Shown here piece after piece: positions 1 through 47,912 of a stretch of DNA of 47,912 nt. The translations under genes and the position numbers were made by a program. The stretch is from IMG/VR virus record IMGVR_UViG_3300050026_000188; one strand, 5' to 3'. Numbering within the stretch: position 1 is the stretch's first letter; the number at the start of each line of letters is the position of its first letter. The stretch is from a virus. The notes under the pieces were generated by a model. The model saw nothing but the letters and a program-made list of their open reading frames with translations, ran no database searches and was not told the origin of the DNA.

Positions 1-77
1 GAGATCGCCCCCGCCGTGTTGAGGATGCTTGTCCCATCCGGCTTCACGCCTCCGAGCACGGTCGAAGTCGCCGTGGG
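1..77. repeat. Terminal direct repeat: bases 1..77 are identical to 47836..47912
   Basis: Exact 77-nt identity by direct comparison of the first and last lines of the window; a large minus-strand ORF reads through the junction in frame. Confidence 0.9.
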
Positions 78-907
78 TAGAACATAGGCAGATGGCGTCC
101 CACTCACCTGCGAGTAGGGCAGACTTAGGCTGGGCAGTGACGTAATCGCATTGGTGATATACCCGGAGGGATTCGCGGCGCTGTATGGGGTGAATCCCAA
201 AGCCGTCGTCACCATCGAGCCGGTGATGCCGCTGATGTACCCACTCGGGTTGGTTGCGTTGTATGGAGTGAATCCGAGTGCATTCTGCTTCCCATTGAAT
301 GCGGCCCAGTCAATGTGCGATAGGTAGCCGTCCACCGATGAAGTAGCCTGAGCCATCGCGCAATCTACGCTCGATCCGCTCGTCGTGCAATCCACCGGGG
401 CCGTGCCCGTGACCGCACTCAGCCCTCCGCCAGTTGAAGCCCCCCGCGCAACCATCGCGTTAGGGCTGGCAGTGAGCGTAAGGCTTACGCTGGTTGCCGT
501 GAACGTTCCCGAAGTCACGAATTTGATATGAGTCAGGCCGGCGAGATTGACTTGATAAAGCCCGTTCGCGGTCGCTGTCACGGTTGCGGTTGGGGTTGCG
601 CCTGGCGTTACCGCAGTGATTGGAATCGAGTAGTAAGTCGCTCCGTTGTCGCTACTCCCCAACACGGCGAAGGTTGCAGTTGTCAGGGAAGTTCCGGTTA
701 CAGCGATTGTCCCCGACGCGAAAGAGCTTCCGACGGTTGAGGGCACTACCAGGCCGTTGAGTTGAAATGGGGTACTGGTTTGCCCCGTGGCGGTAAAGAT
801 CTTCGCAGGGAAAACCGAATTGCTGTAAGGGCTCGCCAACTGAGCGCGAGCGGCGGGAGCCCCTAAACCAAAGCACAACGCGAGTGCGAGTAAAATCTTA
901 GTTCTCA
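1..907 (-). CDS. N-terminal part of a giant secreted tail-fibre-like protein (continues at 47835..44232 across the junction; about 1500 aa in total)
   Basis: ATG at 907..905 preceded by GGAGGG; N-terminus MRTKILLALALCFGLGAPAARA-QL looks like a Sec signal peptide; Gly/Thr/Ser/Ala-rich; repeated ALGFTPY..NPSGYI and ..VLGGVKPDG.. fibre-like motifs; frame continues into ORF 44232..47894. Confidence 0.6.
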
Positions 908-961
908 TTATTTGAAGCCCTCCGTTATTATTTATACGTTGCGGACTGATATTATGCATCC

Positions 962-3105: not shown

Positions 3106-4614
3106 ATGACCTGGCTCCGTAATTTGTGGGATCGCTTCCGTAAGACACCCGCGCCGTTCTCAGTGACACCCGCCCCCGAACGTGGGGAGGGCTTAGCGCG
3201 GGCTCTCGCGAAGGCGAAAGAGACGGGCGGCCGCAAGAGCTATTGCTATCCCGTCAAGGCTCCCGATCTGATGCCCGGAGTTGTGCCCGCCACTGCGAAA
3301 TCTGGGATCGCGATGGATGCGAATTTCTCCGCGATGAATGGGGTACCAGGCGCGGCCGGCTACGCTTATGGTGATTCCGCCGGCTTCCCGGGATACCCCT
3401 ATCTCGCTATGCTCGCGACTCGCGCCGAATATCGGGCGTTTGCGTCCACCCTGGCGACAGAACGCACGCGGGAATGGATCGTGCTCAATAGCACGGATAC
3501 CGCCGGCGATGAGACGAAGACGAGGATCACCGAACTTACTCAAGCGCTCAAAGATATCAAACTGCAAAAGGTTATTCGGCGAGCGGCAGAGCAGGATTGT
3601 CTTTACGGCCGCGGGCAGATCTTTATCAAGATCAAGGGCGCTGATGACTCCCTTCCGCTCATCCTCAGCAATAAGACAATCAAAAAGGGCAGTTTCGACA
3701 GCGTTACGAATGTTGAGCCCATTTGGACAACGCCCAGCGCTTACAACGCTCTTGATCCAACGGCCGCGGATTTCTACAAGCCTTCTAAGTGGTGGATGCT
3801 CGGGAAGGAAGTTCATGCGAGCCGGATGATGACGATGATCACGCGGGAACTTCCGGACATACTCAAGCCCGCCTTCAATTTCAGCGGCATGAGCTTGAGC
3901 CAACTTGCAGAGCCCTATGTTGACAATTGGCTTCGCACGCGCCAGAGCGTCTCAGATCTGATCAATAACTTCTCAATCACTGCTCTCAAAACCAGCATGG
4001 GGCAAGTATTACAGGGCGGAGATGGACCGGACGCCGATGGTACCGATCTCTTTGAACGCGCCGATTTATTTACGGCCGGCCGAAGCAACAAAGGGCTCAT
4101 GCTGCTCGATAAGGACAGCGAAGAGCTAGTGCAAGTAAACACGCCCCTGGGCGGCCTGCATGAGCTTCAAGCGCAAGCTCAAGAGCAGATGTGTTCCGTT
4201 AGCCGTACCCCGGCGATCATCCTTACTGGCATCTCTCCGAGCGGGCTAAACGCTTCGAGTGAGGGCGAGATCAGCACATTTGAGGATTGGAACGCCGCTC
4301 TGCAAGAAGCCTATGATCGCGAGCCGATAGAAACAGTGCTCAAGGTTCTACAACTTTCGATGTATGGCGAGATTGATCCCGATATTACTTTTGCGTTTGT
4401 CCCGTTGCGGCAGATGACAAAGAAAGAACTCGCGGAGATCCGGACGGCCGACAGCACCACGGCCGGAACTTACATTGACCGCGGCGTGATCTCTCCGGAG
4501 GAAGAGCGCGAACGCCTGGCGCGAGATCCGGATAGCGGGTACCAGGGGCTAGATATGAGCCTTGAAATTGCAACTCCAAATGAGGGGAATACAGACAATG
4601 AAGACGATGAATAA
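3106..4614 (+). CDS. Portal protein (DUF1073-like)
   Basis: About 500 aa ORF directly after the large terminase; by-eye resemblance to DUF1073-type portals; acidic C-terminus. Confidence 0.65.
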   Translation: MTWLRNLWDRFRKTPAPFSVTPAPERGEGLARALAKAKETGGRKSYCYPVKAPDLMPGVVPATAKSGIAMDANFSAMNGVPGAAGYAYGDSAGFPGYPYLAMLATRAEYRAFASTLATERTREWIVLNSTDTAGDETKTRITELTQALKDIKLQKVIRRAAEQDCLYGRGQIFIKIKGADDSLPLILSNKTIKKGSFDSVTNVEPIWTTPSAYNALDPTAADFYKPSKWWMLGKEVHASRMMTMITRELPDILKPAFNFSGMSLSQLAEPYVDNWLRTRQSVSDLINNFSITALKTSMGQVLQGGDGPDADGTDLFERADLFTAGRSNKGLMLLDKDSEELVQVNTPLGGLHELQAQAQEQMCSVSRTPAIILTGISPSGLNASSEGEISTFEDWNAALQEAYDREPIETVLKVLQLSMYGEIDPDITFAFVPLRQMTKKELAEIRTADSTTAGTYIDRGVISPEEERERLARDPDSGYQGLDMSLEIATPNEGNTDNEDDE

Positions 4615-5128
4615 GAAGGTTTTGTTGGGGCTCATGCTGCTAGTTTGCGTCACGGTTGCTTTTGCCGCGGTCAACGTAAAAGGTTTGATCGTTGACGCGC
4701 TTACGGGCTACACAGTGGCCGGCGCTGCCCCGAATAACTACACACTATGCGGTAACGGGACCGTGGGCACTTACCAGGCGTCATGCGGCGCGGCGGCTCC
4801 TGTTCGCACTTGCAACGCTAACGGCTGCTATATCCGATACTCAGACGGTACAATACACGCCTGGGGAACGATCACCACGGCGTCATCAGGCGGAACGCTT
4901 TCGAGCGGTACGATCACTTTCCCCACGGCATTTACAACTGTCGTGCAAAGTCTGTTGGTTTCTGGACAGAGTCAACCTGACAGCACAGACGACGCATACG
5001 TTACTTACACGAAGAGCGGAACGACTAGCGGCGCTACCGTAGTAATACGGTGCTCCATCAACATTAGCGGATCTGGTTGCTCTTCACTAAACGCCGTTCC
5101 CGTTGGCTGGATAGCCGATGGATACTAA
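4598..5128 (+). CDS. Small secreted protein with an H-type-lectin-like C-terminal domain
   Basis: ATG at 4598 with GAGGGG upstream; MKTMNKKVLLGLMLLVCVTVAFA-AV signal-peptide-like N-terminus; C-terminal ITFPTAFTTVVQSLLV...VTYTKSGTTSGATVV...VGWIADGY pattern. Confidence 0.45.
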   Translation: MKTMNKKVLLGLMLLVCVTVAFAAVNVKGLIVDALTGYTVAGAAPNNYTLCGNGTVGTYQASCGAAAPVRTCNANGCYIRYSDGTIHAWGTITTASSGGTLSSGTITFPTAFTTVVQSLLVSGQSQPDSTDDAYVTYTKSGTTSGATVVIRCSINISGSGCSSLNAVPVGWIADGY

Positions 5129-9640: not shown

Positions 9641-9746
9641 CAATGAGCGAGAAGCGGCCTACGAAACGGACTCTTCCCCCGCAAGTCGGAGGAGTGCGAA
9701 TCAAGGCTAAACCTAACTTGGATTATTACGACGGGAGAAAATAACA

Positions 9747-9980: not shown

Positions 9981-9982
9981 CG

Positions 9983-23420: not shown

Positions 23421-23425
23421 CCCCA

Positions 23426-23671: not shown

Positions 23672-23697
23672 CGGTTGCCACTCGGAGAATAATAATT

Positions 23698-24090
23698 ATG
23701 ACTGTTACCTCAGTGCTTGACGATGTAAAAGGCTGGTTCGCGAAGGTTTTCAAGAATGCACCTTCCGCCGAAGTTACGGCCCTCTCTGCCCTCAATACCG
23801 TTGCCCCCGAAGCGGAGATCTTGCTTGATCTGATCGATCCGGCCGCTGGCGCAATCGCAACCCCGATCATTACCGAAGTGCAGGCTGATCTCGGTACCGT
23901 CGCGAACCTGCTCAAGTCGGGCAATACCGTCAATCTCGGTACCTTCCTGGCTGCGATCAAGAGCAATTTGAGCCTACTGCTCACCGAGGGCCATATCACG
24001 GACCCGGCAAGCGTCACGAAGGCGACGGGGATCGTTGGCGCGATCTCTGGCGTTATTACCAGCCTGCAGAATCAGTACGCAACGGCGTAA
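23698..24090 (+). CDS. Hypothetical protein
   Basis: 130-aa ORF with AGGAGA-type RBS region. Confidence 0.25.
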   Translation: MTVTSVLDDVKGWFAKVFKNAPSAEVTALSALNTVAPEAEILLDLIDPAAGAIATPIITEVQADLGTVANLLKSGNTVNLGTFLAAIKSNLSLLLTEGHITDPASVTKATGIVGAISGVITSLQNQYATA

Positions 24091-24791: not shown

Positions 24792-25041
24792 GGCACTCGG
24801 GGCGCTCTTCGTCGGCATCCCATATCAGGCCGCAAGTATCACAAACGATCTGATCAAGTTGCCGGCGAGCTTTACAGTTTGGCAGGTTCAAAGCTGGTAT
24901 CCCCCTCACGTTCTAAATAACTAGGCTCAAAACTCTCATCTTCCCATTCCGCATACGTCTGCCCAGTCACATCTAAGAACGCTCGCCAGGCAGCCTCTTC
25001 GCGTGCGTATTTTTGCTTGAGGTACCAATATTGGCGATTGC

Positions 25042-25290
25042 TCACTGTTTGAACGAACTACCCGTCTCACTGCCGTCAACCGTGGCGTCGGCGACAACCC
25101 ATACAACAACGCCGCCCGGCTTAGTCACCCGGTATAACTCGCGGGCGAGAGCTTCAAAATTCCAAGAAAATCCCTTGTATTCGCGGAGGTTGTCATACGG
25201 AGGGGACGTAACTGTTAGCTGTACACTCTCGCTCGCTACAAGGCAACTGAGAGCCATCACGTTATCGCAGTTATATAGTTGCATAGCCAA
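25042..25290 (-). pseudogene. Truncated beta-class N6/N4 DNA methyltransferase (N-terminal fragment only)
   Basis: 82 aa carrying motif IV (TSPPY) and the following YRVTKPGGVVVWV block, then a stop; no downstream FxGxG motif; start overlaps the polymerase stop. Confidence 0.5.
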
Positions 25291-27265: not shown

Positions 27266-28104
27266 TACGCAGCGGCCGCGGCCTTCGGTTTGATCTCTTC
27301 AACGTAGAGATAAAGATCTAGCAAGAGCTTGCGATCAACTTCGATAAACTCCCCGTACTCTTCATCAGCGAGCATCCCGGCCACGTCTTCGAGGGCGGCA
27401 GTAACGCGCCGGATGAGTTCGGGATCGCGAGCAACCGGCTTCGGAACTTTGACCGCGCCCGGTTTCTTTACGTCGCTCCGCTCGATAGTGCCCTCTTTTT
27501 TCAAAACCTCATGCTGCTGAGCTTTGCTGAGCTTCGCGATTGCAACGGCCGCCGACTCTTTGACCCGGCCGGATTTCACCGCTTCGGCGGCTTCCTCTGA
27601 CAGAGAGATAAGCGCGATGCGGTCCTTTACGAACTTGTGGGCGGCCTTGAGTTCGCCCTCAGTCTTCGCGGTCGGGAAGTAGACGCCGGCGATCTGCTCA
27701 TCCGTCATCGCGTAGACGTTGAGAAGCCGCTTGATGTTGTGAGCGTCGTCAAGGGGAGTTGCGGGATTGCGAAAGCGATTCTCTGAGATGTTGATCAGAA
27801 ACGCTTCGCCTTCGCTGCATTGCACGTAGGTACAACGAACCTGCAGTTTGACCGGCGCGAGCCCGCGCTTGTTGATCTCGCTGATCGCACGCCAGCGAGA
27901 GAAGCCGGCAACCAGGACGGCCGCGCCGCCATCGTTGCGGATGACAACCGGCGTATGCTGCCCGCGCGCCAGGATATCGGTAATGAGCCATTCAATCTCA
28001 GGCTTTTCGTGACGACCGTTGAGATCGGGCTTGATCGTAATGTCTTCAGGGTAGAAGCGATACTCGGAGGTTCGCTTATGCTCAACTGCAAACTGTACTG
28101 CCAT
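27265..28104 (-). CDS. ParB-like nuclease-domain protein
   Basis: N-terminal TPVVIRNDGGAAVLVAGFSRWRAI block resembling the ParB N-terminal domain. Confidence 0.6.
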   Translation of the reverse strand: MAVQFAVEHKRTSEYRFYPEDITIKPDLNGRHEKPEIEWLITDILARGQHTPVVIRNDGGAAVLVAGFSRWRAISEINKRGLAPVKLQVRCTYVQCSEGEAFLINISENRFRNPATPLDDAHNIKRLLNVYAMTDEQIAGVYFPTAKTEGELKAAHKFVKDRIALISLSEEAAEAVKSGRVKESAAVAIAKLSKAQQHEVLKKEGTIERSDVKKPGAVKVPKPVARDPELIRRVTAALEDVAGMLADEEYGEFIEVDRKLLLDLYLYVEEIKPKAAAAA

Positions 28105-28364: not shown

Positions 28365-29318
28365 TTAGCCCATCGTCATATAACCTTCGGCGATCAAGTT
28401 GGCTTGCGTCCAACCGGCCGATATAAACGCCTGGTACGAAGCGCCGGCAGCCTTCGCGGTCATCTGGGGACCGCTAGAAGGGGATGCAGGAGCAGGCGGT
28501 GGAGGCGTCGGGGGAGCCGCAGCAACCGCAGGGGACGGCGGGATAGCCGGGATCGCGGCGGGCGAGGAAGGGTTTGCCGGTACCTGCAGGAATTGGGGGT
28601 TAGGTTGTACCGGGATTGGGGGCGGCGGCGCGGCAGCGACAGTAGCGGAAGGCACAGGCACAGGCATAGGGACCGTAGAAGCTGCCGGCGTCATGCTTGC
28701 GCCGGCAGGCAACGCCGATTGACCAAAGCCCGCTTCGTTTACATCGGGACCGAAGACGATCTCGGGACCGTATCCGCGGAGGCAAATCATCGAATGGTTG
28801 AGATAGATGCCCGGCTGAGACTGCGAGCCGTTCCCGTCAACCGTGCCGGCCACTTCAATAAAGTAACCAGGCTTGACGTAATCAACTTCCATCACTTGCA
28901 CCATTCCGCTCGCGTCGGGGCGGTAAACCTTCGGAGCGAAGCCGCCAGAGAACTTGAGAATCCAGTGACCCTTCCAACCTTCGTTATCGCAGGGCTTCCG
29001 GCCGCGCTTGTTCGGGACTGCAGAATCACCGTTTTCGATTTTCCAAGCAAAGCTCGGGCTCTGGGCGGCTTGTGGAAACGCCTTGTGGCCAACTGCCCAG
29101 ATGATTGCGCCCCATGATGTCTCTGCCCAGTGCTGCTCAGCGCCCTTTGGAATCGCGAGCGCGAAAAAGAAGTTGGTGCGAGATTGGCCGGCGTTTGGTC
29201 CGTTTTTGATGACTAGGGGTTTACCCTCAGCATCAGTGGTACTCCCTTTGTATAGGCTTCCCATCACCATACGACCAACGGGAAGTTGCGGTGGATTGAT
29301 ATTTACGCGATCTGCCAA
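28365..29318 (-). CDS. ssDNA-binding-like protein (DUF2815 / gp2.5-like) with Pro/Ala-rich linker
   Basis: TTG start with AGGAGA 6 nt upstream; sits beside a DUF2800-like gene; about 70-aa Pro/Ala-rich low-complexity segment before the C-terminal tail. Confidence 0.45.
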   Translation of the reverse strand: MADRVNINPPQLPVGRMVMGSLYKGSTTDAEGKPLVIKNGPNAGQSRTNFFFALAIPKGAEQHWAETSWGAIIWAVGHKAFPQAAQSPSFAWKIENGDSAVPNKRGRKPCDNEGWKGHWILKFSGGFAPKVYRPDASGMVQVMEVDYVKPGYFIEVAGTVDGNGSQSQPGIYLNHSMICLRGYGPEIVFGPDVNEAGFGQSALPAGASMTPAASTVPMPVPVPSATVAAAPPPPIPVQPNPQFLQVPANPSSPAAIPAIPPSPAVAAAPPTPPPPAPASPSSGPQMTAKAAGASYQAFISAGWTQANLIAEGYMTMG

Positions 29319-29413: not shown

Positions 29414-30544
29414 TCAACCCTTCCCAAATACTCTGCGTGCAGCAGTATTATTCTGTGGCACCAGTTTTACAGCGCCAGGAATAATTGAAGAGTAATTATT
29501 ACTGACGGCTTCGTCAAGTCCTAATCGATCCGCCTGAGCTGGCGAGACAACACCGGGTTTGCTAAGGTTTTTTCCCAGCATTTGACCGATAGTTATGAGT
29601 TGATCAATGGGAATATTCCACTGGCGGCGGCCCTTGCCCGGCTCTGCGACGTAATAGGGCACTGACGCGCCCGCTCTCAGGTTGGCGAGCGTCAACGCCC
29701 TAAGTCCTTCAACGCGAGCCCCTAGCCTCTCGTATGCCCTTTCGAGCATCCTGAGTTCAAGGCCGGCAGCCTGGGGCGTGAGGTTATGAGGTTGGCGAGC
29801 CGTTGCAAATTCCGCGTCACTGTATGCGGCTCTCTGCAGAGCTTCGCACGCATGGCGGCCGGGACAATGGCAGCACTCGGGATTTGTGGAAGCCATCGGC
29901 TTAGGGCTATACGCCTGGGTTGCCGCGGCCTGCATCGCGATCATATGGGCGCGGGCAGTGACTTCGCCCCATATGTAATTGTGCGTTCGGACGGGCTCGC
30001 CGCGGTGATAGCAGCGGGGTTGGATTACGGTAAAGCTCACTGAGATGTTGGCAGGATCTCCCAGTAGAGCAGGCTTCAACGTCTCGATAATTCCGGACGC
30101 ATAGAGCAAACCTTGCTTGTTGAAATACTCATCTACAAACCCGTGACCATACTTGTAGTCGAATACCTCAAGGTGCATTCGAGCGAGATCGAACGTCCAA
30201 ACGTCAGGAGTGCCGCCGCATTCCTCATGGATCTCGGGAATGCTAACCCACTCTTCGATATGAAGCATCCCCGGCGTGATTGGATTGATCCGGCGTGCAA
30301 CCGTCTCCGCGATGAGTTCCGCGCCGTCGAGCATCTCGCCGGTGATGATTACACCGTTGGGGGCGCTTGAGCCCTCAGAGTACAACCGGCCTGCCAACAT
30401 CTCAGTACCAACCCAATGGGCCGCGGTCCCTTCAACGCTCTCGGGGGTATCGTCTTGGGAAAACTCCTTATTCATTTTCGGCCATTGGGCACACTTAGAC
30501 CAGGCCGCCGCGCCAGAAGGGGGAAGAAACGCATGTACAGTCAT
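29414..30544 (-). CDS. PD-(D/E)xK nuclease, DUF2800-like (Cas4/RecB-like, Cys cluster)
   Basis: N-terminal FLPPSGAAAWSKC, internal ECCHCPGRHAC cysteine cluster; adjacency to the SSB-like gene. Confidence 0.55.
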   Translation of the reverse strand: MTVHAFLPPSGAAAWSKCAQWPKMNKEFSQDDTPESVEGTAAHWVGTEMLAGRLYSEGSSAPNGVIITGEMLDGAELIAETVARRINPITPGMLHIEEWVSIPEIHEECGGTPDVWTFDLARMHLEVFDYKYGHGFVDEYFNKQGLLYASGIIETLKPALLGDPANISVSFTVIQPRCYHRGEPVRTHNYIWGEVTARAHMIAMQAAATQAYSPKPMASTNPECCHCPGRHACEALQRAAYSDAEFATARQPHNLTPQAAGLELRMLERAYERLGARVEGLRALTLANLRAGASVPYYVAEPGKGRRQWNIPIDQLITIGQMLGKNLSKPGVVSPAQADRLGLDEAVSNNYSSIIPGAVKLVPQNNTAARRVFGKG

Positions 30545-31381: not shown

Positions 31382-33124
31382 ATGCCCCCCGTCCTACGCC
31401 CCTTCCAAGTCGATTTAGAGCGCGATTGCTACGCAGCATGGGACGCCGGCGCGGTCAACGTTATGCCAGTGGCGGCCACGGGCAGCGGTAAGACGGTCCT
31501 GCTCTCCAAAATTGCTTATGACGAACCAGGGGCATCTATCGCGGTTGCCCATCGTCAAGAGCTTGTGAGTCAGATCGCCGTAGCGCTTGCCCGTAATGGC
31601 GTCAGGCATCGCGTAGTTGGCGCGAAAAAAGGCTCCGCCCTGGTGCGAGTGATTACGGCGCTGCAGGTTGCCGAACTCGGTTACAGCTTCCTCGATCCGA
31701 ACGCTAAAACCGGCGTGGGCGGCGTTGATACCGTAATCCGGATGGCTAATGAGCCCTGGTTTCTGCAGGTGCGATTACAGATCCAAGACGAAGGGCACCA
31801 CGTACTAAAAACTAACAAGTGGGGGAAGGTTGTTGAGATGTTCCCCAACGCCCGCGGGCTCTTCCCTACCGCTACGCCGTCGCGAGCGGATGGTAAGGGG
31901 CTGGGGCGGCACGCCGACGGCATCACAGACGCGTTAGTGCTCGCGCCATCCATGCGGGGCATTATCAACATGGGGTATCTGACGGATTACCGTCTTCTCT
32001 GCCCGAAGTCTACTTTGGATCTCACAAACGTAGCGATAAGCTCAGCAACCGGCGATTTCAATATTGATCAGGTACGGAAGGCCGTTCACGATTCGAGCAT
32101 CACGGGCGACGTTGTAAAACACTATCTGCAATTCGCCGCCGGCAAACTGGGGATCACATTCGCGGTAGACGTTGAGGAAGCCGGCAAGATCGCGAACGCC
32201 TTCAAAGCCCAGGGCGTACCGGCCGAAGTGGTGAGCGCGAAGACTCCCGATGCACTCCGCGCCGCGATCCTTCGGCGCTTCAAGCGGCGCGAGATCCTTC
32301 AACTCGTAAACGTCGATCTCTTCGGCGAAGGCTTCGATCTGCCGGCGATAGAGGTTGTGAGCTTCGCCAGGCCGACTCAATCCTTTGCGCTCTACTCTCA
32401 GCAATTCGGCCGCGCCCTACGGCTGATGATCGCCGATGAGCTTCAATCTCGCTGGGGAACCTTCACCGATGAGCAGCGCCGCGAGTTGATCGCTCGAAGC
32501 GTCAAGCCGAAGGCGATCATCTTGGATCACGTAAACAACATCGTTCGGCACAATGGACCGCCGGATAGGGCTCGCGATTGGACGCTTGACCGGCGAGAGA
32601 AACGGGCGAAGGATTCCGATGCGATCCCTATCCGCGTCTGTATTGCGTGCCTACAGCCTTACGAAGCGTTCTATAAGAAATGCCCATATTGCGGGTATTA
32701 CATGGCTCCCGATGCCATCGGCCGAAGTAAGCCCAAGTTTGTAGACGGGGATCTCACCGAATTGGATGCGGAGACGCTCGCAGCGCTCCGCGGGGATATT
32801 GCTCGGATCGATGGTGATTTCTACGCGCCCCAGGGCTTAGACCATTACGCCGCAATGGGGGCAAGGAAGCGCCACGCGGAACGGCAAGAGGGACAGAGAG
32901 CTTTGCGTAACGCGGTCGCGTGGTGGGCAGGTACAGAGCACGCCCGCGGGTACTCAGAGAGCGAGAGTTACCGGCGGTTTTTCTTCCGCTTCGGCATCGA
33001 TGTTGCAAACGCCCAAACTCTCGGGACACGGGAAGCCAGCGAGTTAGCCCTCAAAGTAAATTTGGAATTGCAGAAATACGGCGTTGACGGTACCGTTATT
33101 TCTACAGCGTTAGAGATAATGTGA
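31382..33124 (+). CDS. Superfamily-2 DEAH-type helicase with C-terminal zinc ribbon
   Basis: RPFQ, Walker A ATGSGKT, DEGHH box, CIACLQPYEAFYKKCPYC. Confidence 0.75.
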   Translation: MPPVLRPFQVDLERDCYAAWDAGAVNVMPVAATGSGKTVLLSKIAYDEPGASIAVAHRQELVSQIAVALARNGVRHRVVGAKKGSALVRVITALQVAELGYSFLDPNAKTGVGGVDTVIRMANEPWFLQVRLQIQDEGHHVLKTNKWGKVVEMFPNARGLFPTATPSRADGKGLGRHADGITDALVLAPSMRGIINMGYLTDYRLLCPKSTLDLTNVAISSATGDFNIDQVRKAVHDSSITGDVVKHYLQFAAGKLGITFAVDVEEAGKIANAFKAQGVPAEVVSAKTPDALRAAILRRFKRREILQLVNVDLFGEGFDLPAIEVVSFARPTQSFALYSQQFGRALRLMIADELQSRWGTFTDEQRRELIARSVKPKAIILDHVNNIVRHNGPPDRARDWTLDRREKRAKDSDAIPIRVCIACLQPYEAFYKKCPYCGYYMAPDAIGRSKPKFVDGDLTELDAETLAALRGDIARIDGDFYAPQGLDHYAAMGARKRHAERQEGQRALRNAVAWWAGTEHARGYSESESYRRFFFRFGIDVANAQTLGTREASELALKVNLELQKYGVDGTVISTALEIM

Positions 33125-35037: not shown

Positions 35038-37401
35038 GTGAATCAATTCATCGTTTACCGAAGGTCCGACAAGGCTCCCGTTGACTACCGCACGGGCAAG
35101 CCCGCGAACGCTCACGATTCCTCAAATTGGACAGACGTAGCAACAGCATCCAGTGTTGCTCAGGCATGGGGCGCTGAGTGGGGCATCGGTTTTGTTCTTA
35201 CGGAGCAATCGCAGATCGCTGTGATCGATGTGGACGGTTGCCGCAATCCGCAGACTGGGGAAATAAGCCTCATCGCTCAAACATTGATCACCATGCTTGC
35301 TGGTGCTTATGTTGAGATCAGCATCGGTGGGAAGGGCATCCACATCTGGTTTCGTTATAGCGGGGCGATGCCCCCGCACGCGAGCAGGGCGGCCGGAATT
35401 GGCGAGTTTTATCACAAGGATAGATACATCGCGATTGGCGCTCCTTATGCGGCTCCCAGCTTCACAAACGGAAGTCTGGGGACGGACCATACTGTATCTC
35501 TTCCATCTCTGATTGCTACGTTCTTTCCCCCTGACGCTTCGAGCGTCGGTGAGAGCGAATGGACTACCGAGCCCCGCGAAGATTGGAACGGGCCGCTAGA
35601 GGATAGCGAGTTGTTGCGCCGCGCCATGCAGAGCCGCTCGACGGCAAGCGCCTTCGGCGGTAAGGCGTCCTTTGCGGACTTGTGGCTCGCTAACGAGTCT
35701 GTACTCGCTGTGAGCTACCCTGACGCCAACGGGAGAGCCTACGACGCGAGCGCCGCCGATGCTGCCCTGGCTCAGCACTTGAGCTTTTGGACGGGTGGAG
35801 ATTGCGCTCGTATCGAGCGATTGATGAGGGGCTCAAAGCTAGTCAGGGAGAAGTGGGAACGTAACGCAGACGTGTACTCCGGTCCGGGTATGGGATATAT
35901 CCCCCGCACCATCCTGGGCGCTTGTGGTCGGCAGCTTGAGGTACTCTCTGATGCCGCCAGCGCCCCCGTACCGCCCCCGCCGGGCACGGTGAGCCATGCG
36001 CCCACCCCCAGGGGCGGCGATGGCTTCCTGGACTCTGAGAAGCAACAGGCTCACTTTGGGCAGTGCGTCTATGTGAGCGGCCAAAACAGAGCCTTAGTGC
36101 CTGACGGCTCGCTAATGAAGCCCGACGCCTTCCGCGTGCGATACGGCGGTTTCAATTTCAATCTCGATACTCAGAATATGAAGACAACCCGGGACGCCTG
36201 GGAAGCGTGGACGCAAAACCAGGTTTACAAATGCACTGAGGTAGACGGGATATGCTTCAAGCCCAATCTACCGGCGCGGAGCATCGTACACGCCAACGGT
36301 CAGACCTTTATCAACACCTTTATCCCCGTCGACATTCGGCGCGTTGTGGGCGACGCCAGTCCCTTCCTCAACCATCTCGCGAAGGTACTGCCCGATGAGC
36401 GCGACCGTACGATTTTGCTCTCGTATATGGCGGCGTGCGTCCAACATCAGGGAATCAAATTCCAATGGGCTCCCTTGCTGCAGGGCGTTGAGGGGAACGG
36501 CAAGACGCTCTTTGCGCGATGCGTAGAGCAGGCCGTTGGTACTCGATACACCTATTGGCCGAAGGCAGCGAAGATCTCCGCAACCTTCAATGCATGGATG
36601 GCTAACAAAGTCTTCTATGCGGTCGAAGATATTTATGTTCCCGACTCGAAGCGCGAGATCCTCGAAGACTTGAAGCCGATGATCACGGGGGACAAAATCG
36701 AGATCGAAGCGAAGGGCATCGATCAATTCATCTCGGATATTTGCGGTAACTTTATGTTCAATTCCAACCATCTTGACGCGATCCGGAAGACTGAGAATGA
36801 TCGCCGCTTTTGCGTGCTCTTTAGCGCTCAGCAACAGTCAAGCGACCTGAGACGGGACGGACTAACGGAGAGTTACTTTGTAGCCTTGTACAACTGGCTT
36901 AGAGAAGAGGGCTACGCGATAGTCAACGAGCTTCTATTTACCTACGCGATCCCCGCGGAGTTGAATCCCGCCGGCGACTGCCAGCGAGCGCCGGTCACCA
37001 CCAGCACCTCTAAGGCCATCAAAGACGGCCTGGGCAGCCTTGAGCAAGAGATCGCGGAAGCCGTCGCCCAGGGCTTGCCGGGCTTCTCTGGTGATTGGAT
37101 ATCTACAACCTGGCTTGAGCGCCTTCTAGAGCGGATGCGGCTAAACAAGATATCACACTCGAAGCGTAAACAGATCCTTGAGCAGATGGGTTATATCTAC
37201 CATCCCGCGCTCACTGACGGCCGCCCCAACAATCCCGTGCTGCCCGACAACACAAAGCCGCGGCTCTTCGTACTCGCCGGATCCCTGACTTCGCAGATCC
37301 CGACGGCCGCGGCAGCCACGAAGCATTATGAAGCCGCCAACGCAAATAAGAGCCCCGTAGGGCTCCCGTTCGCTGCTCATCAGTTTGGGCGCTCTAACTA
37401 G
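35038..37401 (+). CDS. DNA primase-helicase (PrimPol-like N-terminus + SF3 helicase)
   Basis: IAVIDVDG primase-type DxD motif; Walker A GVEGNGKTLF and Walker B FYAVEDI; GTG start with AAGGGG upstream. Confidence 0.75.
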   Translation: MNQFIVYRRSDKAPVDYRTGKPANAHDSSNWTDVATASSVAQAWGAEWGIGFVLTEQSQIAVIDVDGCRNPQTGEISLIAQTLITMLAGAYVEISIGGKGIHIWFRYSGAMPPHASRAAGIGEFYHKDRYIAIGAPYAAPSFTNGSLGTDHTVSLPSLIATFFPPDASSVGESEWTTEPREDWNGPLEDSELLRRAMQSRSTASAFGGKASFADLWLANESVLAVSYPDANGRAYDASAADAALAQHLSFWTGGDCARIERLMRGSKLVREKWERNADVYSGPGMGYIPRTILGACGRQLEVLSDAASAPVPPPPGTVSHAPTPRGGDGFLDSEKQQAHFGQCVYVSGQNRALVPDGSLMKPDAFRVRYGGFNFNLDTQNMKTTRDAWEAWTQNQVYKCTEVDGICFKPNLPARSIVHANGQTFINTFIPVDIRRVVGDASPFLNHLAKVLPDERDRTILLSYMAACVQHQGIKFQWAPLLQGVEGNGKTLFARCVEQAVGTRYTYWPKAAKISATFNAWMANKVFYAVEDIYVPDSKREILEDLKPMITGDKIEIEAKGIDQFISDICGNFMFNSNHLDAIRKTENDRRFCVLFSAQQQSSDLRRDGLTESYFVALYNWLREEGYAIVNELLFTYAIPAELNPAGDCQRAPVTTSTSKAIKDGLGSLEQEIAEAVAQGLPGFSGDWISTTWLERLLERMRLNKISHSKRKQILEQMGYIYHPALTDGRPNNPVLPDNTKPRLFVLAGSLTSQIPTAAAATKHYEAANANKSPVGLPFAAHQFGRSN

Positions 37402-37824: not shown

Positions 37825-38457
37825 TCATTTGCTCACCCGCTTTAGAAATAATGCCTTCTGACGTTCAATAGCCGCCGAGTACGCCGCCCAGTACGCCGAG
37901 TCCGCCGCCGAGTCCGCCGCCGAGCGCGCCGCCGAGCGCGCCGCCAAGCGCGCCGAGTACGCCGCCGAGTCCACCGCCGAGTCCACCGAGTCCACCGAGT
38001 CCACCGCCGAGTTCGCCGAGTCCGCCGCCCAGTACGCCGAGTCCGCCGCCGAGTCCGCCGCCGAGTACGCCGCCGAGTACGCCGCCGAGCGCGCCGCCGA
38101 GCGCGCCGCCGACTTTTTATCTTCTAACTGAGCAAGCGTAATTTTTCCGTCCATAAAATCGCTCGCGGCTTGCAGCGCTTCGCGAGGGCGCTTGTCGTCA
38201 GGAAACGCCTTCTCAAAATTACCCAGAACTTCCATTGCAAAATCAACAGAGAGTAAAACGATGGCTCGCTTACAGGGCTCCGTAGTCGCTCGCATTGCCC
38301 AGATCGCATGATCTAAGCCGTTGGATTTGAGGATGCGTTTTAGACTGATTTCTTTATCGTCAGTCCACTTGGAGCCGAGTGAAGCTGTCAGAGTTTGTAA
38401 TCCAGCAGAGCAGGCGTTTGCCTTGTGAAGTAGAGCGAGCGTGGTTTTGAGCATCAT
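37825..38457 (-). CDS. Protein with a C-terminal SAA(R/Y/D) tetrapeptide repeat array
   Basis: ATG ATG at 38457 with AGGAGG upstream; non-repetitive N-terminal domain of about 110 aa, then SAARSAARSAAYSAAYSAADSAADSAYW... repeats. Confidence 0.45.
   Translation of the reverse strand: MMLKTTLALLHKANACSAGLQTLTASLGSKWTDDKEISLKRILKSNGLDHAIWAMRATTEPCKRAIVLLSVDFAMEVLGNFEKAFPDDKRPREALQAASDFMDGKITLAQLEDKKSAARSAARSAAYSAAYSAADSAADSAYWAADSANSAVDSVDSVDSAVDSAAYSARLAARSAARSAADSAADSAYWAAYSAAIERQKALFLKRVSK
37871..38112. repeat. GC-rich 12/9-bp tandem repeat array (GCCGCCGAG + 3 nt) inside a coding region
   Basis: About 20 consecutive units readable directly in the sequence. Confidence 0.85.
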
Positions 38458-38483
38458 TGTGAGCGCCTCCTGAGCGCTGATAC

Positions 38484-38512
38484 AGAGTATCAATTTACTA
38501 GTAAGCTGTCAA
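38484..38512 (-). promoter_or_regulatory. Promoter-operator cassette copy 1
   Basis: Minus strand: TTGACA - 17 nt containing TTACTAGTAA - TACTCT, then leader with AGGAGG. Confidence 0.4.
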
Positions 38513-40435: not shown

Positions 40436-41335
40436 ATGACACCCAATAACTACCCCGTAATTACACCGCTAGCCATTCGGGGTAATTCTAAGCGCCCGTT
40501 TGCATTGTGGATGCCCGGCGCGGTAATGTGGGAAGCCAGGGATATGCTCAGTGATCGTCAAAAACGTTTCGTCTTCCATCAGGCTCGCATTACTGATGGT
40601 GCAAAGGCTTACGTATTGGCAGGTTACAGCGAGCAGGGAGCGGCTCAAGGCGCTTCGCGTCTGTTACAGAACGTTGAGATACAGGAAGCTATAGAGGTTG
40701 AGCGGGCGGACCTGGCCCGTGTCGCGAGCCTGAGCCCCGAATGGGTTTTGAATCGATGGATGTTGATCGCCAGCGCGGACCCGAGAGATCTGATCCATAC
40801 CCGCATCGGCTGCTGTCGGCATTGCTGGGGCATTGATAACAAACGGGAATGGATGGAACACGAATACGCTACCGCGCTCAACGAAGCTCTGACTTGCATG
40901 TTGCTGCCGCCGGCCTTCGAGGGTGGCCTAGGGTACTCGCCGACTCGCGAGCCTAACCCTGACTGCCCTAAGTGCAAGGGCGAAGGCTTGCCGCGGACCT
41001 GGCTCGCCGACTCCCGCAAGCTGAGCCGTTCGGCCGCGGCTCTCTTCGCTGGCGTAAAGCAGACGAAGGATGGGATTGAGATCAAGATGCACGATCAGCC
41101 CGAAGCGCTCAAGTCGCTCGCCGATTACCTGGGGATGCAGAACAAGAGCAGCGCCGATGTAAAGCTGGCTGCGGCTCTGGTGGTGGGCGGGAGCGCTAAG
41201 GATCTCTCAGACGATGAGCTTGCCGGCATCATTGAGCGGGGGCGGTTGCGGAGGGCTCGAGCTGCGACTTTGGGGGTATCTGCGGGGGTATTATCGCCGG
41301 CGGCGTTGCCAAGTAAGACAATCGAGGGCACTTAG
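40436..41335 (+). CDS. terS: Terminase small subunit-like protein (SPP1 G1P / Terminase_2-like) with Cys-rich insert
   Basis: LSDRQKRFVFHQARITDGAKAYVLAGYSEQGAAQGASRLLQNVEIQEAI...RVASLSPEWVLNRWMLIASADPRDL matches the small-terminase N-terminal pattern; CCRHC / CPKC cysteines. Confidence 0.65.
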   Translation: MTPNNYPVITPLAIRGNSKRPFALWMPGAVMWEARDMLSDRQKRFVFHQARITDGAKAYVLAGYSEQGAAQGASRLLQNVEIQEAIEVERADLARVASLSPEWVLNRWMLIASADPRDLIHTRIGCCRHCWGIDNKREWMEHEYATALNEALTCMLLPPAFEGGLGYSPTREPNPDCPKCKGEGLPRTWLADSRKLSRSAAALFAGVKQTKDGIEIKMHDQPEALKSLADYLGMQNKSSADVKLAAALVVGGSAKDLSDDELAGIIERGRLRRARAATLGVSAGVLSPAALPSKTIEGT

Positions 41336-44133: not shown

Positions 44134-44165
44134 AAACTAGAAGGGATACGGGCAATTGATCGCGC
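44134..44165 (-). terminator. Stem-loop between convergent genes (candidate intrinsic terminator)
   Basis: 11-bp perfect stem GGGATACGGGC / GCCCGTATCCC with a 10-nt loop; on the minus strand it is followed by UUCUAGUUUGUG. Confidence 0.4.
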
Positions 44166-44231
44166 CCGTATCCCCAAAAATACCCCTCTCGGCTTGCGCT
44201 TTACCCGCCCAGAGGGTGGTGCTAGTTACTC

Positions 44232-47200
44232 CTAGTTACCAATGCAAATATAGCGAATTGCGTCACTACCTAAACCGCCATCATCTGAAAATGTCACCGA
44301 CGATCCACTTGTGTAAGTAACTCCCAGTGCGTTAAGATTGATGGTGCTGACTGTTGCGCTCGTCATACAGGCATAAGAGGATGAACTGGTAAATATGGCT
44401 GACCCGCTAAATGTCACCGTTGCAGCACCACCAGAAAGCGTCGTCAAGCCCATCACTGTGTGCGCAGATGTCAGTTGCGTCCCGGCGGCGTTGTAGAGCG
44501 TTCCACCAGGGCACCCCGTCCCATCCGCAAGGCAGTGGGCTTCTGGTACTCCGCTACCATTCAAGTCTGTGCTGCCCGCTCCTGCTGAAGATACACCTGT
44601 GCTACTTACTTGAAACTGGCTACTTGAACCAACGGATAGCAACGCCGCTGGCGAAGTCGTCCCGATGCCGACGTTGCCTTGGAAAATACCTCCACCTGTT
44701 CCAACCCACAGACTCTTCCAACGTTGGCCCGTAACCCCAAGGTTAATCGTATTATCGAAGGCGGGGGCCGGATTAAGACCAGTTGCGGTTAATTGCATTA
44801 CATCCTCATAAGCTGGGGAACCCGGCAGCTCAAAAGCGAGCGTGGTATACGTGCTCTGCGCACCAATCCTTAAAACATTATAGGTGCTGTCCAAATATAT
44901 AAAGGCTGGCGGCGTCTGCCCATTTATTACGATTGGGTTGGCAAAGACTGTAGGATTTCCGGCGATAGTCAGGCCGCCCGTGCGCAATGCGCCAGTGCCA
45001 AGATCAAGAGCCTGTACAGGGCTCGTCGTCCCGATACCGACGTTGCCGTTATTATCTATCCTGACCTTTTCCGTTGGTCCACTAAGACCATCATTTTGCG
45101 TGAGAAAACGAATCTGCGATAGTGTATTTTGCGAACCAGATACGATGTCAAGTATTCGTGCATAGATGCCTGCCGTTGGGAAATTTTGAGCTTGGTAAAA
45201 ATTGAAAACACCTTGGTCACTAATACCATATGTTCTTAAATTAGTATCAGTAGACGGATTTCCCAAAGACAACTGCCCACTCGGCCCCGTCGTCCCGATG
45301 CCGAGTCTATGATTCGTCGCATCCCAGAAGAAATTGGAATTGTCTTGTGCGATGGTTGAGCCATTTGAGAACAACACGGAGCCAGAGGTTAGCGAAGGCA
45401 AAGTGAATGTCCCGTAAGTATTTGTGTCCAGCGCAAACGTCCCTGCTGCCGTCATCTTTACGAATGGTGTGCCCGTAGTCCATGTCGGATAATTCAACGC
45501 GCCCCATGTGCCTACGGAAGGCAGAGCCGTGCATCCCCCGCTGGACATCAATGCGCCAGAGCAAGAGCCGGAACCAAACAGCGCCGTTATATCGCTGTAT
45601 AGCGGAGTGCGCCACGCCGTGTTCCCACTATTCGCCACGCCAATCGTGTTTGCTCCGGGGTAGGTCATGGTACTGCCCGGAGTCTGCCATCCCTGAGCTG
45701 TTGCCCCAGAGTTCATCCCCCAGACTTGGTTTGCCGTGCCGTTGGTGCTGAGGTTTGTGGCTGTGGATGAGTTGCCAGTAAAAGCGGCTCCATGAAGTGT
45801 CGCTAATCCGGCTGCACTACCGAAGTATTCATCAGTTACCGCAGCATTGCCAATTACTGCTGTGTTGGAACCTGCTCCAACTGCCGTCGATCCTACTACA
45901 ATTTCGTTTGTGTTACCATTCGCACTTGCCTGTGTGTTCTGCCCCAGGAAAGTCCCGTAGCTACCCGTTATATTATGATACCCAGTAGGAAGTAAAGTTC
46001 CTGCTAAATAGCCCGCTGCTGTATTACCATTGCCCGTAGTAGTGAACTGAAGCGCCCCACTTCCAATTCCGGTACTGTAACTCCCAGAAGAGTTTGTAGC
46101 TAGGGTATTATTTCCGATTCCTATGTTATTGCCCCCACTTGTAAGATTGTAGAGGGCAGAGTCCCCTAAGCCTATATTGTTACTACCTGTCTCTATGCCA
46201 CCGTAACCTATTGCCTCAGCACCTATCGCGATATTGAATGATCCAGAGGCACCAAGTAGGTTTGATGTACCTATGGCAATGTTCACTGTGCCGGTAGAAC
46301 TTGCTAAAGTGCTACTATTACCGATGGCAATCGAACTAGCTCCTCCATACGTCAAGGGCAAACCGCCCCCTAAATTCAGATTAGAAGATGGGATGGTATA
46401 AATTGCGACCCCACTATCCTGAACCTGGTCCCCTGTTCCGGTAAAGGTTACGGCATCATTGGCGGTTGCGCTGCCGGGTCCGGTGACTGGGTTGGTAAGC
46501 GCGAGTTGGAAGTCCGTAGCCGCATGAGTCGCCGCCGTCCCTACCGTTGTAGAACAGCCGCTCGCTCCGTTGCTCAGATCGCCACATGCTGCTTGACTGA
46601 ATGTTGCGCTGCCGTTCGACTTGACCGCGCCTGTCACGGCCCCCGCGTTGTCCGCCTTCGTGCCTTGTGCCGCCGTGGCATAAGCCGTGGACGCGGTGTA
46701 AGCCGCCGACCCAACCGCACCGCTGCCAAGCAGCACCGAGCCACTTCCATAGGTACTTAGCTCGCCCAGCACGCCGCTGTTGTTGTACTCGATGTGGCCA
46801 GTCGTGCCACCCGCAATCGTCGTGGTGCCTACGGTGATCGTTCCAGCAGATGCGGATATGGTACAGGTTCCACCCAGGGCGCAGTTCTGGCCGTTGACCG
46901 TAGTCACCGAGTTTGCTAAGGCTGCGTTCGGTACCGCCTCATACGTCACCGTGTTCGTACCGGTCACTACCGGTACGGTGTTGGTTGAAGGGCTGGAACC
47001 GTAGCTAACTCCATTCACCACTGCAACCGTGGGAGTTGCGGTCGTCACTGCTGTCAACTGCCCCGCTGCGTTGTAGGTGATAACTGGTATCGCTGTCGCG
47101 CTTCCCGTCGGCCCTGCCGCCGTAATGACCCCACCCGAGGGGACGTGGCTTGCCGATGTGCCGATAGGGAGGTAGGAATAGCCCACAGTCCCAGACGAGA

Positions 47201-47912
47201 TGTTGCTGGCGTTGGAGGCGTAAGTTTCAGCATTCGATTGAGCCGTGGAAGCTGCGCCAGAAGCATCATAGGCCGTTGATGCGGTAAACGCCGCAGTACC
47301 AAATACGCCCCCAGCCGCAGTCGTCAGATAGGAAAGCGTCGTTACGGTTGGCGCAACCGGAGTGTAGGTCAACGCGGTAGTCACCTGGCCAGAGGTCATG
47401 CCGGTTAGGTTCGCCATACTGAAGGTCGGTGCCGCCGTGAAAGTCGGAGCCGCGCTGCTGCCGGTGAAGTTGCCAAAAACGGTGTTCGCCGCCTGATTCT
47501 TGAGTGTTGCCGTGACCGTTCCGCTGGTTGTTACCGCTGTACTCGGAGTCGAACTGTCCACCGTGCCATCGCCCGTGAAGGTCACGCTGCTTACGCTTCC
47601 CGTAGATGTTCCGCACGTTGGGCAAGAGATCGCTCCCGTTGCCGCGACTACAATTGGGAGTGTTCCGCTCAGTCCAGCCGAACCAACCGAGCCGATGGGA
47701 ATGCCAGTCGGCAGATAACTCACTCCAATGGTTCCAGTGTTGATGTGGCTGGCATTCTGCGCGTAAGTCTCGGCATTGCTCTGAGCCGTTGCCGCCGCAC
47801 CGGAAGCATCCGCTCCCACACTTGCCGCTGTTGCCGAGATCGCCCCCGCCGTGTTGAGGATGCTTGTCCCATCCGGCTTCACGCCTCCGAGCACGGTCGA
47901 AGTCGCCGTGGG
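44232..47912 (-). CDS. C-terminal part of the giant secreted tail-fibre-like protein (N-terminal part at 907..1)
   Basis: ORF is open to the window edge and matches 1..77; A..S..A..S fibre-type repeats (TAQSNAETYA.NAS twice); several N.GIGTTSP motifs. Confidence 0.6.
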   Translation of the reverse strand, partial: PTATSTVLGGVKPDGTSILNTAGAISATAASVGADASGAAATAQSNAETYAQNASHINTGTIGVSYLPTGIPIGSVGSAGLSGTLPIVVAATGAISCPTCGTSTGSVSSVTFTGDGTVDSSTPSTAVTTSGTVTATLKNQAANTVFGNFTGSSAAPTFTAAPTFSMANLTGMTSGQVTTALTYTPVAPTVTTLSYLTTAAGGVFGTAAFTASTAYDASGAASTAQSNAETYASNASNISSGTVGYSYLPIGTSASHVPSGGVITAAGPTGSATAIPVITYNAAGQLTAVTTATPTVAVVNGVSYGSSPSTNTVPVVTGTNTVTYEAVPNAALANSVTTVNGQNCALGGTCTISASAGTITVGTTTIAGGTTGHIEYNNSGVLGELSTYGSGSVLLGSGAVGSAAYTASTAYATAAQGTKADNAGAVTGAVKSNGSATFSQAACGDLSNGASGCSTTVGTAATHAATDFQLALTNPVTGPGSATANDAVTFTGTGDQVQDSGVAIYTIPSSNLNLGGGLPLTYGGASSIAIGNSSTLASSTGTVNIAIGTSNLLGASGSFNIAIGAEAIGYGGIETGSNNIGLGDSALYNLTSGGNNIGIGNNTLATNSSGSYSTGIGSGALQFTTTGNGNTAAGYLAGTLLPTGYHNITGSYGTFLGQNTQASANGNTNEIVVGSTAVGAGSNTAVIGNAAVTDEYFGSAAGLATLHGAAFTGNSSTATNLSTNGTANQVWGMNSGATAQGWQTPGSTMTYPGANTIGVANSGNTAWRTPLYSDITALFGSGSCSGALMSSGGCTALPSVGTWGALNYPTWTTGTPFVKMTAAGTFALDTNTYGTFTLPSLTSGSVLFSNGSTIAQDNSNFFWDATNHRLGIGTTGPSGQLSLGNPSTDTNLRTYGISDQGVFNFYQAQNFPTAGIYARILDIVSGSQNTLSQIRFLTQNDGLSGPTEKVRIDNNGNVGIGTTSPVQALDLGTGALRTGGLTIAGNPTVFANPIVINGQTPPAFIYLDSTYNVLRIGAQSTYTTLAFELPGSPAYEDVMQLTATGLNPAPAFDNTINLGVTGQRWKSLWVGTGGGIFQGNVGIGTTSPAALLSVGSSSQFQVSSTGVSSAGAGSTDLNGSGVPEAHCLADGTGCPGGTLYNAAGTQLTSAHTVMGLTTLSGGAATVTFSGSAIFTSSSSYACMTSATVSTINLNALGVTYTSGSSVTFSDDGGLGSDAIRYICIGN

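Follow-up and report, generated by a model that had tools for sequence, protein, structure and literature searches.

The 47,912-nucleotide (nt) stretch of viral DNA in IMG/VR record IMGVR_UViG_3300050026_000188, referred to here as the window, carries on its minus strand a giant gene for a fibre-type protein of 1503 amino acids (aa). The giant protein is best read as a fibre of a soil phage that has been re-routed through the secretory pathway. Based on its sequence and those of its relatives, there is good support for Sec export of the protein, for its cleavage and disulfide bonding, and for its assembly into a long modular fibre with a knob of the glycan-binding type. As to its role, we favour, although we stop short of calling it probable, a Sec-routed phage fibre adhesin that joins the virion as an accessory fibre.

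The giant gene crosses the junction of a circular genome. Bases 1-77 and 47836-47912 are an exact direct repeat at the two ends of the window and, because these 77 bp are identical, the window is a circular assembly of a true genome of 47,835 bp. The minus-strand join of 908 to 1 with 47835 to 44232 is one stop-free open reading frame (ORF) of 4512 nt, encoding 1503 aa followed by TAG (44234-44232). The 5' part of the gene (1..908) encodes residues 1 to about 303, and the 3' part, with the stop, occupies 44232..47835; the remaining 47836-47912 is the overlap that repeats 1-77. The two halves appear out of frame when the overlap is left in, which explains why the ORF listing holds only a 1220-aa piece. 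A preliminary description of this DNA, made from the sequence alone, had proposed one minus-strand gene of about 1500 aa across a circular junction, and this stands, except that its start at 907 is to be corrected to an ATG at 908-906.

The junction is real, as confirmed by two independent IMG/VR contigs. Contig L007, from another sample, aligns to the window without a break at 99.93% through the junction (window 4356 to 1, then 47835 to 46401), and contig L008 matches window 60-10651 at 99.97% identity. An assembly artefact, in which genes from the two contig ends, separate or paralogous, were wrongly joined, might be suspected from a gene that touches both window ends and whose halves are out of frame with the overlap kept. 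Its probability is negligible given the exact 77-bp end overlap, the stop-free joined frame, and the matches to L007 and L008 at 99.9% identity or more, and the alignments to these contigs refute it. As L007 reads straight through the junction, 1..907 and 44232..47912 are not separate paralogous genes.

The N-terminus of the giant protein, residues 1-22 (MRTKILLALALCFGLGAPAARA; 843..908, minus strand, as are all coordinates of the giant gene), is followed by QLASPY and has the tripartite layout of a signal peptide: an MRTK n-region of charge +2, a hydrophobic core of 12 residues (ILLALALCFGLG), and APAARA with A-x-A at -3/-1, so that cleavage is predicted at ARA/Q. Signal-peptide calls are made throughout by hydrophobicity and charge heuristics, and the signal peptide is supported by four independent lines of evidence. 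AlphaFold (AF2) models residues 2-14 as a helix and residues 20-28 as disordered, followed by a separate beta-sandwich. Over the first 20-30 residues, the sequence is free to vary among 27 out of 27 aligned relatives, and yet a basic n-region, a hydrophobic core, and a c-region of small residues are always present; sequence conservation begins exactly at the mature end, (Q)(L)ASPYSNSVF.

What follows the signal peptide is a conserved N-domain (ND; residues 23-155, 444..842), a beta-sandwich whose free N-terminal peptide, (Q)LASPYSNSVF, is conserved, and then a Gly-rich linker. An exhaustive profile search with ND matches 229 representative clusters (50% identity), 191 of them at E<=1e-10. ND stands at the N-terminus in the best 150 of the 229 representatives. 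The preliminary description had proposed a comparison of related phages with and without the signal peptide; a strict hydrophobicity criterion is passed by 135 of these best 150, the remaining 15 being mostly weaker signal peptides or truncated proteins, and signal-peptide features are kept in about 94% of the 150. Genuine members that lack a signal peptide are rare; their sequences start where the mature protein is predicted to start (MPSPYSN..., MVQFSNFVFP...) and contain 0-1 Cys, and a 948-aa fibre among them has zero cysteine.

Cysteine content follows the same division. The giant protein and 120 listed homologues were split by signal peptide into 43 with and 78 without. The 43 signal-bearing proteins have 14.05 Cys per 1000 aa, an even/odd ratio of Cys counts of 39/4, and 57% of their Cys in close pairs, whereas the 78 canonical fibres without a signal have 2.64 Cys per 1000 aa, an even/odd ratio of 27/36 (15 are without Cys), and 19% in close pairs. 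Even-numbered, close-paired Cys are enriched five-fold in the signal-bearing group. The 14 mature Cys of the giant protein form seven neighbouring pairs: 174/183, 374/377, 621/627, 720/730, 1061/1071, 1404/1411, and 1459/1500. Such an even-numbered, paired pattern is characteristic of proteins with disulfide bonds whose folding takes place outside the cytoplasm. Because of the conservation pattern, the Cys statistics, and the signal-less relatives that start at the mature end, it is highly probable that the N-terminus is a genuine Sec signal peptide, as the preliminary description had claimed, and that signal peptidase I would cut it to expose Q-L-A-S-P-Y.

An ordinary tail fibre assembled in the cytoplasm, with the hydrophobic N-terminus serving, for example, as a buried anchor helix instead of a secretion signal, is a very improbable alternative. 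It would account for the fibre modules and the receptor-binding knob, and it gains from the heuristic nature of the signal-peptide call. A further point against the favoured reading is that disulfides may also arise after release, as in Pam3 fibres (PMC10329688). The cytoplasmic fibre does not fit an N-terminal segment that varies freely and still keeps its n, h, and c regions, nor signal-less relatives that lose exactly the signal segment. The presence of a signal also correlates strongly with Cys density and even parity, and AF2 leaves the N-terminal segment unpacked against the domain.

The residue exposed by cleavage is itself a family trait. In 79 of 84 non-redundant signal-peptide N-termini, a Gln lies no more than 16 residues past the hydrophobic core, as against about 44% expected from composition, and nearly every predicted cleavage site in the family exposes Gln (ARA/Q, LCA/Q, VLA/Q, LHA/Q). 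A Gln after cleavage, the Q-rule, has so far been described as specific to Bacteroidetes (PMC5837995), and Q-rule signal peptides are noted on Porphyromonas phage proteins (PMC10367356), where the P. gingivalis phage proteins have Gln after the signal peptide as the ND family does. Set against the Acidobacteriaceae host label, the pattern means that either the rule reaches further or the host assignment is wrong. The sole host clue from a genome scan for the family is one contig, L006, of an Acidobacteriaceae metagenome-assembled genome (CAVQEO010000030.1). At about 9900-10020 of L006, the signal-peptide region of the ND gene seems spread over three frames with two apparent frameshifts and a stop, and the contig ends within the gene; the frame breaks are either an assembly error or a pseudogene. 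The protein clusters of flanking host genes gave no taxonomy. The phage GC content, about 56%, is the same as that of the flanking host DNA.

Beyond ND, the giant protein is a fibre built of modules. Its composition is 54% Thr, Gly, Ala, and Ser. Pfam (E<=1) and PHROG scans of the whole protein gave no match, and PDB sequence searches with the protein and with both domain profiles gave nothing significant. Residues 156-276 (81..443) comprise a Cys-loop module (C174/C183) and two ALGFTPY..NPSGYI repeats (ALGFTPY at 210 and 236, NPSGYI at 220 and 246), which are common to many canonical signal-less tail fibres, including Peptidase_S74 fibres. A VLGGVKPDG..AQSNAETYA module follows (residues 277-344; 47712..47835, on into 1-80 past the junction), and then a weakly conserved shaft rich in Thr, Gly, Ala, and Ser (residues 345-745; 46509..47711) with Cys pairs 374/377, 621/627, and 720/730. 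The next region, of NIAIG/NIGIG repeats (residues 746-985; 45789..46508), looks by eye like a YadA-head-type beta-roll and has no Pfam match. Distal shaft modules bounded by GIGTT (residues 986-1348; 44700..45788; Cys pair 1061/1071) also occur in signal-peptide fibres from other types of phage (P0001, P0002, P0007, P0009). The widely shared neck, NVGIGTTSP...EAHCLADGTGC (residues 1349-1412; 44508..44699; Cys pair 1404/1411), leads to a C-terminal tip (residues 1413-1503; 44235..44507), a small beta-sandwich knob of lectin-like form in which Cys 1459/1500 are conserved.

The preliminary description had listed several of these motifs as repeated. ALGFTPY and NPSGYI are indeed repeated and GIGTT occurs three times (residues 1148, 1236, 1359), whereas VLGGVKPDG is present in a single copy, with AQSNAETYA occurring twice. 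Protein self-BLAST showed no long internal repeats, and no direct repeats were found at the DNA level inside 44232-47912. Structure comparison shows that the fold of the tip resembles phage and pyocin receptor-binding knobs and lectins; together with the modules held in common with canonical tail fibres, this bears out the assignment as a fibre-type protein. In a fold comparison, ND has the beta-sandwich fold of XepA and YomS, with XepA as its best structural neighbour.

The shaft and tips are exchanged readily. Family sequences diverge completely beyond the Gly-rich linker. In L007, a phage 99.9% identical to the window phage in the flanks, the NIAIG region is swapped for a divergent version, and a 354-aa insertion duplicates shaft modules with extra VLGGVKPDG..AQSNAETYA copies (L007 5792-7423 versus window 45779-46401). 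Because the flanks are near-identical and the shaft is reshuffled, recombination of the shaft takes place over very short times. At the C-terminal end, other family members carry SGNH/GDSL, Laminin_G_3, or Vgb_lyase/NHL-type domains. The smallest members (about 250 aa) consist of a signal peptide, ND, a collagen-like Gly-X-Y run, and the tip of the window protein, and it is from the collagen-like runs of these mini-fibres that a trimeric fibre is argued. An invertible fibre cassette of the Mu Gin or P1 Cin type was considered and rejected: no inverted repeats of at least 11 bp were found between the two flanks of the giant gene, and no recombinase was found among the window ORFs scanned.

Based on these properties, the path of the protein may be pictured as follows. 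After cleavage, the mature protein of about 1480 aa would very likely fold under the oxidising conditions of the periplasm, where the 14 Cys would form seven local disulfides and the chains a long, probably trimeric fibre; the host would be a diderm and is probably an Acidobacteriaceae-like bacterium. On fold-level evidence, it is likely that the conserved beta-sandwich forms the base, that the recombining shaft follows, and that the lectin-like knob binds a surface glycan. As no outer-membrane translocator or anchor was found in the genome, the fibre is expected to wait in the periplasm; it appears rather likely that it is held there and freed when holin and endolysin break the envelope. More speculatively, ND with its free N-terminal peptide might dock the fibre onto the cytoplasm-assembled particle as an accessory side or head fibre beside the 270-aa fibre. 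Completion of the virion would then use two compartments, and the part that recognizes the host would be disulfide-stabilised.

Docking onto the virion is favoured for four reasons. A conserved base, a recombining shaft, and swappable, sometimes enzymatic tips are the design of virion receptor-binding proteins; family genes lie inside late operons; ND fibres without signal peptide or Cys exist; and in some contigs the only visible fibre candidates are signal-peptide proteins. In the E217/XM1-like phage group, to which the window phage belongs, the ND fibre always adjoins TerL. In L003, the ND-fibre stop abuts the TerL start, co-directionally, and L001 has the giant gene, a 73-aa gene, and TerL in this order, co-directional and with overlapping ends. 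In L011 (6323-12236), two tandem ND fibres (1244 and 750 aa), both with signal peptides, lie directly upstream of TerL. The ND fibre is divergent from TerL in the window, L004, L009, L010, and L012. Distant relatives have ND-only proteins of 154-187 aa with signal peptides, whose genes are packed into the head operon, with MuF on one side and the gp24-like gene on the other, in L021, L024-26, L028, L029, and L032; in the integrated prophage L030, the ND-only gene comes after the baseplate hub gene. L017 (3099-6340) has adjacent genes for an ND-only protein (128 aa) and an ND fibre (948 aa, zero Cys), both without a signal peptide, and these are the natural cytoplasmic counterparts of the exported family.

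In the podovirus-like contigs L002, L005, L015, and L019/L020, one to four consecutive Cys-rich signal-peptide proteins come after large Cys-free proteins. L019 (6050-16464) and L020 (7014-16577) each have four such consecutive proteins with 4-38 Cys apiece (20-38 in the two large ones), of 1281/960 aa, 370/317 aa (ND), 268/262 aa (with a lipobox, LATSC), and 1565/1629 aa; Pfam gave nothing on these signal-peptide proteins. The L019 block sits before lysis-like small genes in a phage that is otherwise unannotatable. By size and order, the podovirus-like arrangement suggests the slot of T7 gp17, the tail fibre. Pfam and PHROG scans of the homologue neighbours in L002, L005, L015, L017, L019, L020, and L033 gave essentially no matches, so the tail-fibre-slot argument rests on gene order, size, signal-peptide, and Cys patterns. 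Other N-domain types share the pattern of signal peptide and cysteines; an IMG/VR scan with a second N-domain type returned its own contig only.

The window encodes a second, small exported tip protein, possibly related to the giant protein (4598..5128, plus strand; signal peptide MNKKVLLGLMLLVCVTVAFA; 6 mature Cys, in close pairs). Its gene is in the head module between portal and MuF, and homologues with 42-99% identity occupy the same slot in L001 and L008-L012. The protein has a Pfam Gp53-like_C match (29.3 bits versus a cut-off of 24.9) and matches the C-terminal ends of tail-fibre PHROGs. In distant relatives, the head-module slot (after MuF) holds the exported ND-only protein.

A broader proposal, which we hold with still less confidence than docking of the giant fibre itself, is that virion assembly is divided between two compartments in a whole group of soil phages associated with Acidobacteriaceae-like hosts, with exported disulfide-bonded fibres that dock at lysis. 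Heads and tails would be assembled in the cytoplasm, the exposed Gln would perhaps be capped as pyroglutamate, and docking would occur once holin and endolysin merge the compartments. The giant fibre, the 4598-5128 tip protein, and the signal-peptide blocks of L019/L020 would be parts of one pathway.

Several points weigh against docking on the virion. The preliminary description had offered a secreted or surface adhesin, serving lysogenic conversion or exclusion, and an unusual fibre as alternatives, and the evidence points both ways. We know of no tailed-phage virion protein that is exported by Sec, and literature searches turned up no Sec-exported fibre or virion protein of a tailed phage. 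The window phage already has a complete signal-less fibre with a BclA_C/C1q-like knob, and for the giant fibre we infer both the trimeric state and the glycan ligand. In the window, the gene runs divergently from the late operon and ends before a terminator of its own, and the orientation of the ND-fibre gene flips among relatives. In temperate relatives, an integrase adjoins the ND-fibre gene, and the L001 copy is at a prophage edge next to host efflux genes; this is a moron-like position. ND occurs in myovirus-like and podovirus-like contexts and as a stand-alone exported protein, and a shared host-envelope partner therefore fits better than a virion docking site. Lastly, XepA, the best fold neighbour of ND, reportedly passes beyond the membrane by export and is missing from mature PBSX particles (PMC6834076).

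The same points, from the integrase-side location to the virion types and XepA, are what would be expected of a surface or envelope adhesin of the moron type that is never in the particle, for which ND would anchor to a host envelope component and the lectin tip would project from the lysogen or infected cell and alter adhesion or aggregation. We consider this role unlikely, though the most probable of the rivals. With respect to transcription, a Shine-Dalgarno sequence, GGAGGG (918..923), is 9 nt 5' of the ATG and a TATAAA box (936-931) matches a -10 element only; no full sigma-70 promoter match was found for the giant gene on its strand, and its promoter motif was found nowhere else in the window. 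A terminator-like hairpin (44142..44175; 13-bp stem, 8 G-C pairs, T-rich tail) lies 57 nt past the stop, which suggests that the window copy is a self-contained transcription unit. An adhesin is harder to reconcile with the lack of any outer-membrane translocator or anchor among the genes found and of a YadA anchor or other Pfam match in the protein. The window phage is without an integrase, although relatives have one at the giant-gene locus, so there is no obvious lysogen to convert. Several relatives also pack the ND-fibre or ND-only gene inside late structural operons, Cys-free ND fibres without a signal peptide exist, and a long shaft that ends in an enzyme is typical of virion depolymerases.

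The design of such an adhesin has a precedent outside phages. The closest described design is that of the mosaic adhesive trimer (MAT) fibres of Bdellovibrio bacteriovorus, in which a signal peptide is followed by a conserved beta-rich N-domain (about 130 aa), a long trimeric shaft like that of phage tail fibres, and swappable adhesin tips (Caulton et al. 2024, PMC10769870); going by the description, the resemblance is one of design only. MAT genes are chromosomal genes of a predatory bacterium whose fibres are shown on its own surface, whereas the giant gene is a phage gene. In addition, 13 of 21 MAT fibres end in Peptidase_S74, which the giant protein does not have, and no PDB homologue is reported for the MAT N-domain (PMC10769870), whereas the phage ND has one by fold. 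YadA-type trimeric autotransporters likewise combine a signal peptide with a long, probably trimeric fibre, and the NxAIG-type repeats at residues 800-980 of the giant protein are by eye like YadA head repeats. The giant protein was nevertheless rejected as a trimeric autotransporter: it has no C-terminal beta-barrel and no Pfam match (E<=1) to YadA_head, stalk, or anchor, and its C-terminus is a soluble lectin-like knob.

XepA of PBSX and YomS of SPbeta from Bacillus subtilis (PDB 6i56, 6i5o; PMC6834076) are phage-encoded like ND, and YomS has a size like that of the stand-alone ND-only proteins (about 130-190 aa). A profile search of PDB sequences found no sequence similarity between ND and these proteins, which form pentameric discs, belong to lysis cassettes of a Gram-positive host, and have no fibre. 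Canonical receptor-binding fibres (the receptor-binding domain of the cyanophage Pam1 tailspike, R2 pyocin, AP22 gp53, S74 fibres) share the ALGFTPY..NPSGYI repeats with the giant protein, have C-terminal knobs like its tip fold, and evolve as mosaics as it does. In the 78 canonical fibres sampled, however, there is no signal peptide, Cys are few and of random parity, and the genes are in tail modules; the giant protein is the opposite in each respect. A Peptidase_S74 fibre is rejected as its class, because the S74 domain is found only in distant signal-less homologues that share the ALGFTPY repeats.

Large fibre-like phage proteins can reach the cell surface by another route. PblA and PblB of the Streptococcus mitis phage SM1 are reportedly large tail-fibre-like proteins that become bacterial surface adhesins after release; they are said to have no signal peptide and to reach the surface of their Gram-positive host through permeabilisation by holin and lysin.

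Superinfection exclusion would offer a further role for an exported fibre. T5 Llp blocks the phage's own receptor and thereby prevents superinfection and the loss of progeny on debris. By a similar logic, the giant protein and the 4598-5128 protein could be free decoy, exclusion, or receptor-masking factors whose target, bound or modified, is the phage's own glycan receptor on the dying cell and its debris, thus blocking superinfection and sparing progeny, or they could act as a soluble, long-lived glycan binder or depolymerase. We regard this as improbable, and less plausible than a surface adhesin. It is in keeping with it that two exported proteins of the window phage carry receptor-binding-type tips, that stand-alone exported ND proteins exist, and that periplasmic phage exclusion proteins are well known, such as T4 Spackle (PMC7677548). 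A soluble blocker would have no need of a 1500-aa shaft with a conserved basal domain, and the rapid remodelling of the shaft suggests that reach and geometry matter. To our knowledge, no exclusion factor of such length is known, which also counts against a decoy. T5 Llp, lambda Lom and Bor, T4 Spackle, and the Porphyromonas phage proteins (PMC10367356) use the host Sec pathway as the giant protein would, but these exported accessory proteins are small and non-fibrous, and a mosaic fibre of 1500 aa that ends in a receptor-binding knob is not among them.

In every respect save their design for export and oxidative folding, the proteins of this family look like receptor-binding fibres. Through the ND family, the enigmatic XepA/YomS fold also gains a functional handle. 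The particles of tailed phages are taken to be put together wholly in the cytoplasm, and predictors of fibres and receptor-binding proteins assume signal-less proteins. If the giant fibre is on virions, it would represent a new assembly route, host-range predictors would miss a class of receptor-binding proteins, and the disulfide-stabilised adhesins of acidic-soil phages would be explained; the finding is the more fundamental if this association is true. If it is not on virions, the family would consist of surface or decoy fibres of a MAT-like kind, reshuffled as quickly as true receptor-binding proteins are, and would be a new kind of phage-encoded host-surface modifier. In either case, the family is a supply of glycan binders that are stable and modular.

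The window holds the complete genome of a contractile-tailed phage (myovirus), and the giant gene is placed apart from its tail module, as the preliminary description had stated. It lies between the TerS/regulatory region and HNH-TerL, from which it is divergent at a distance of 53 nt, whereas the baseplate genes are at 17-23 kb (17.3-23.1 kb with the conventional fibre). The HNH endonuclease gene (962-1639) is followed on the plus strand by TerL (1606-3099), portal (3106-4614), MuF-like (5118-5915), Pa193 gp24-like (5967-7214), cement or minor capsid (7274-8179), major capsid (8151-9218), sheath (12079-13602), tape measure (15494-17275), gp41-like baseplate hub (18489-19406), and baseplate wedge (20523-21767) genes, and by the conventional 270-aa tail fibre gene (22336-23148), which encodes no signal peptide and a BclA_C/C1q-like knob. 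DNA polymerase (25271-27265), the gp2.5-like single-stranded DNA-binding protein (28365-29318), and exonuclease (29414-30544) are encoded on the minus strand, and helicase (31382-33124), primase (35038-37401), and a TerS-like protein (40436-41335) on the plus strand. No integrase was found in the window.

The HNH gene is a homing-endonuclease gene that overlaps TerL directly downstream and is absent in L001 and L003. The TerS-like gene is about 8 kb from TerL on the circular map, with regulators and the giant gene between them. In the related phage L032 (6092-7860; NCBI GCA_030841365.1), genes for an ADP-ribosylating-toxin-like protein (ADPrib_exo_Tox) and an InPase-domain protein are located between portal and MuF, a head-module region that is variable in the other phages as well. 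After the tail fibre gene of the window, a probable lysis cassette (23157-25354, plus strand) encodes small membrane proteins of 87 and 81 aa, a protein of 130 aa without annotation, a 233-aa protein whose N-terminus includes a transmembrane segment, and an ORF of 113 aa; its proteins gave no match to known endolysin or spanin families. The replication and early region includes a ParB-like protein (27265-28104, minus strand) and an Imm5-like putative immunity protein (37825-38493, minus strand).

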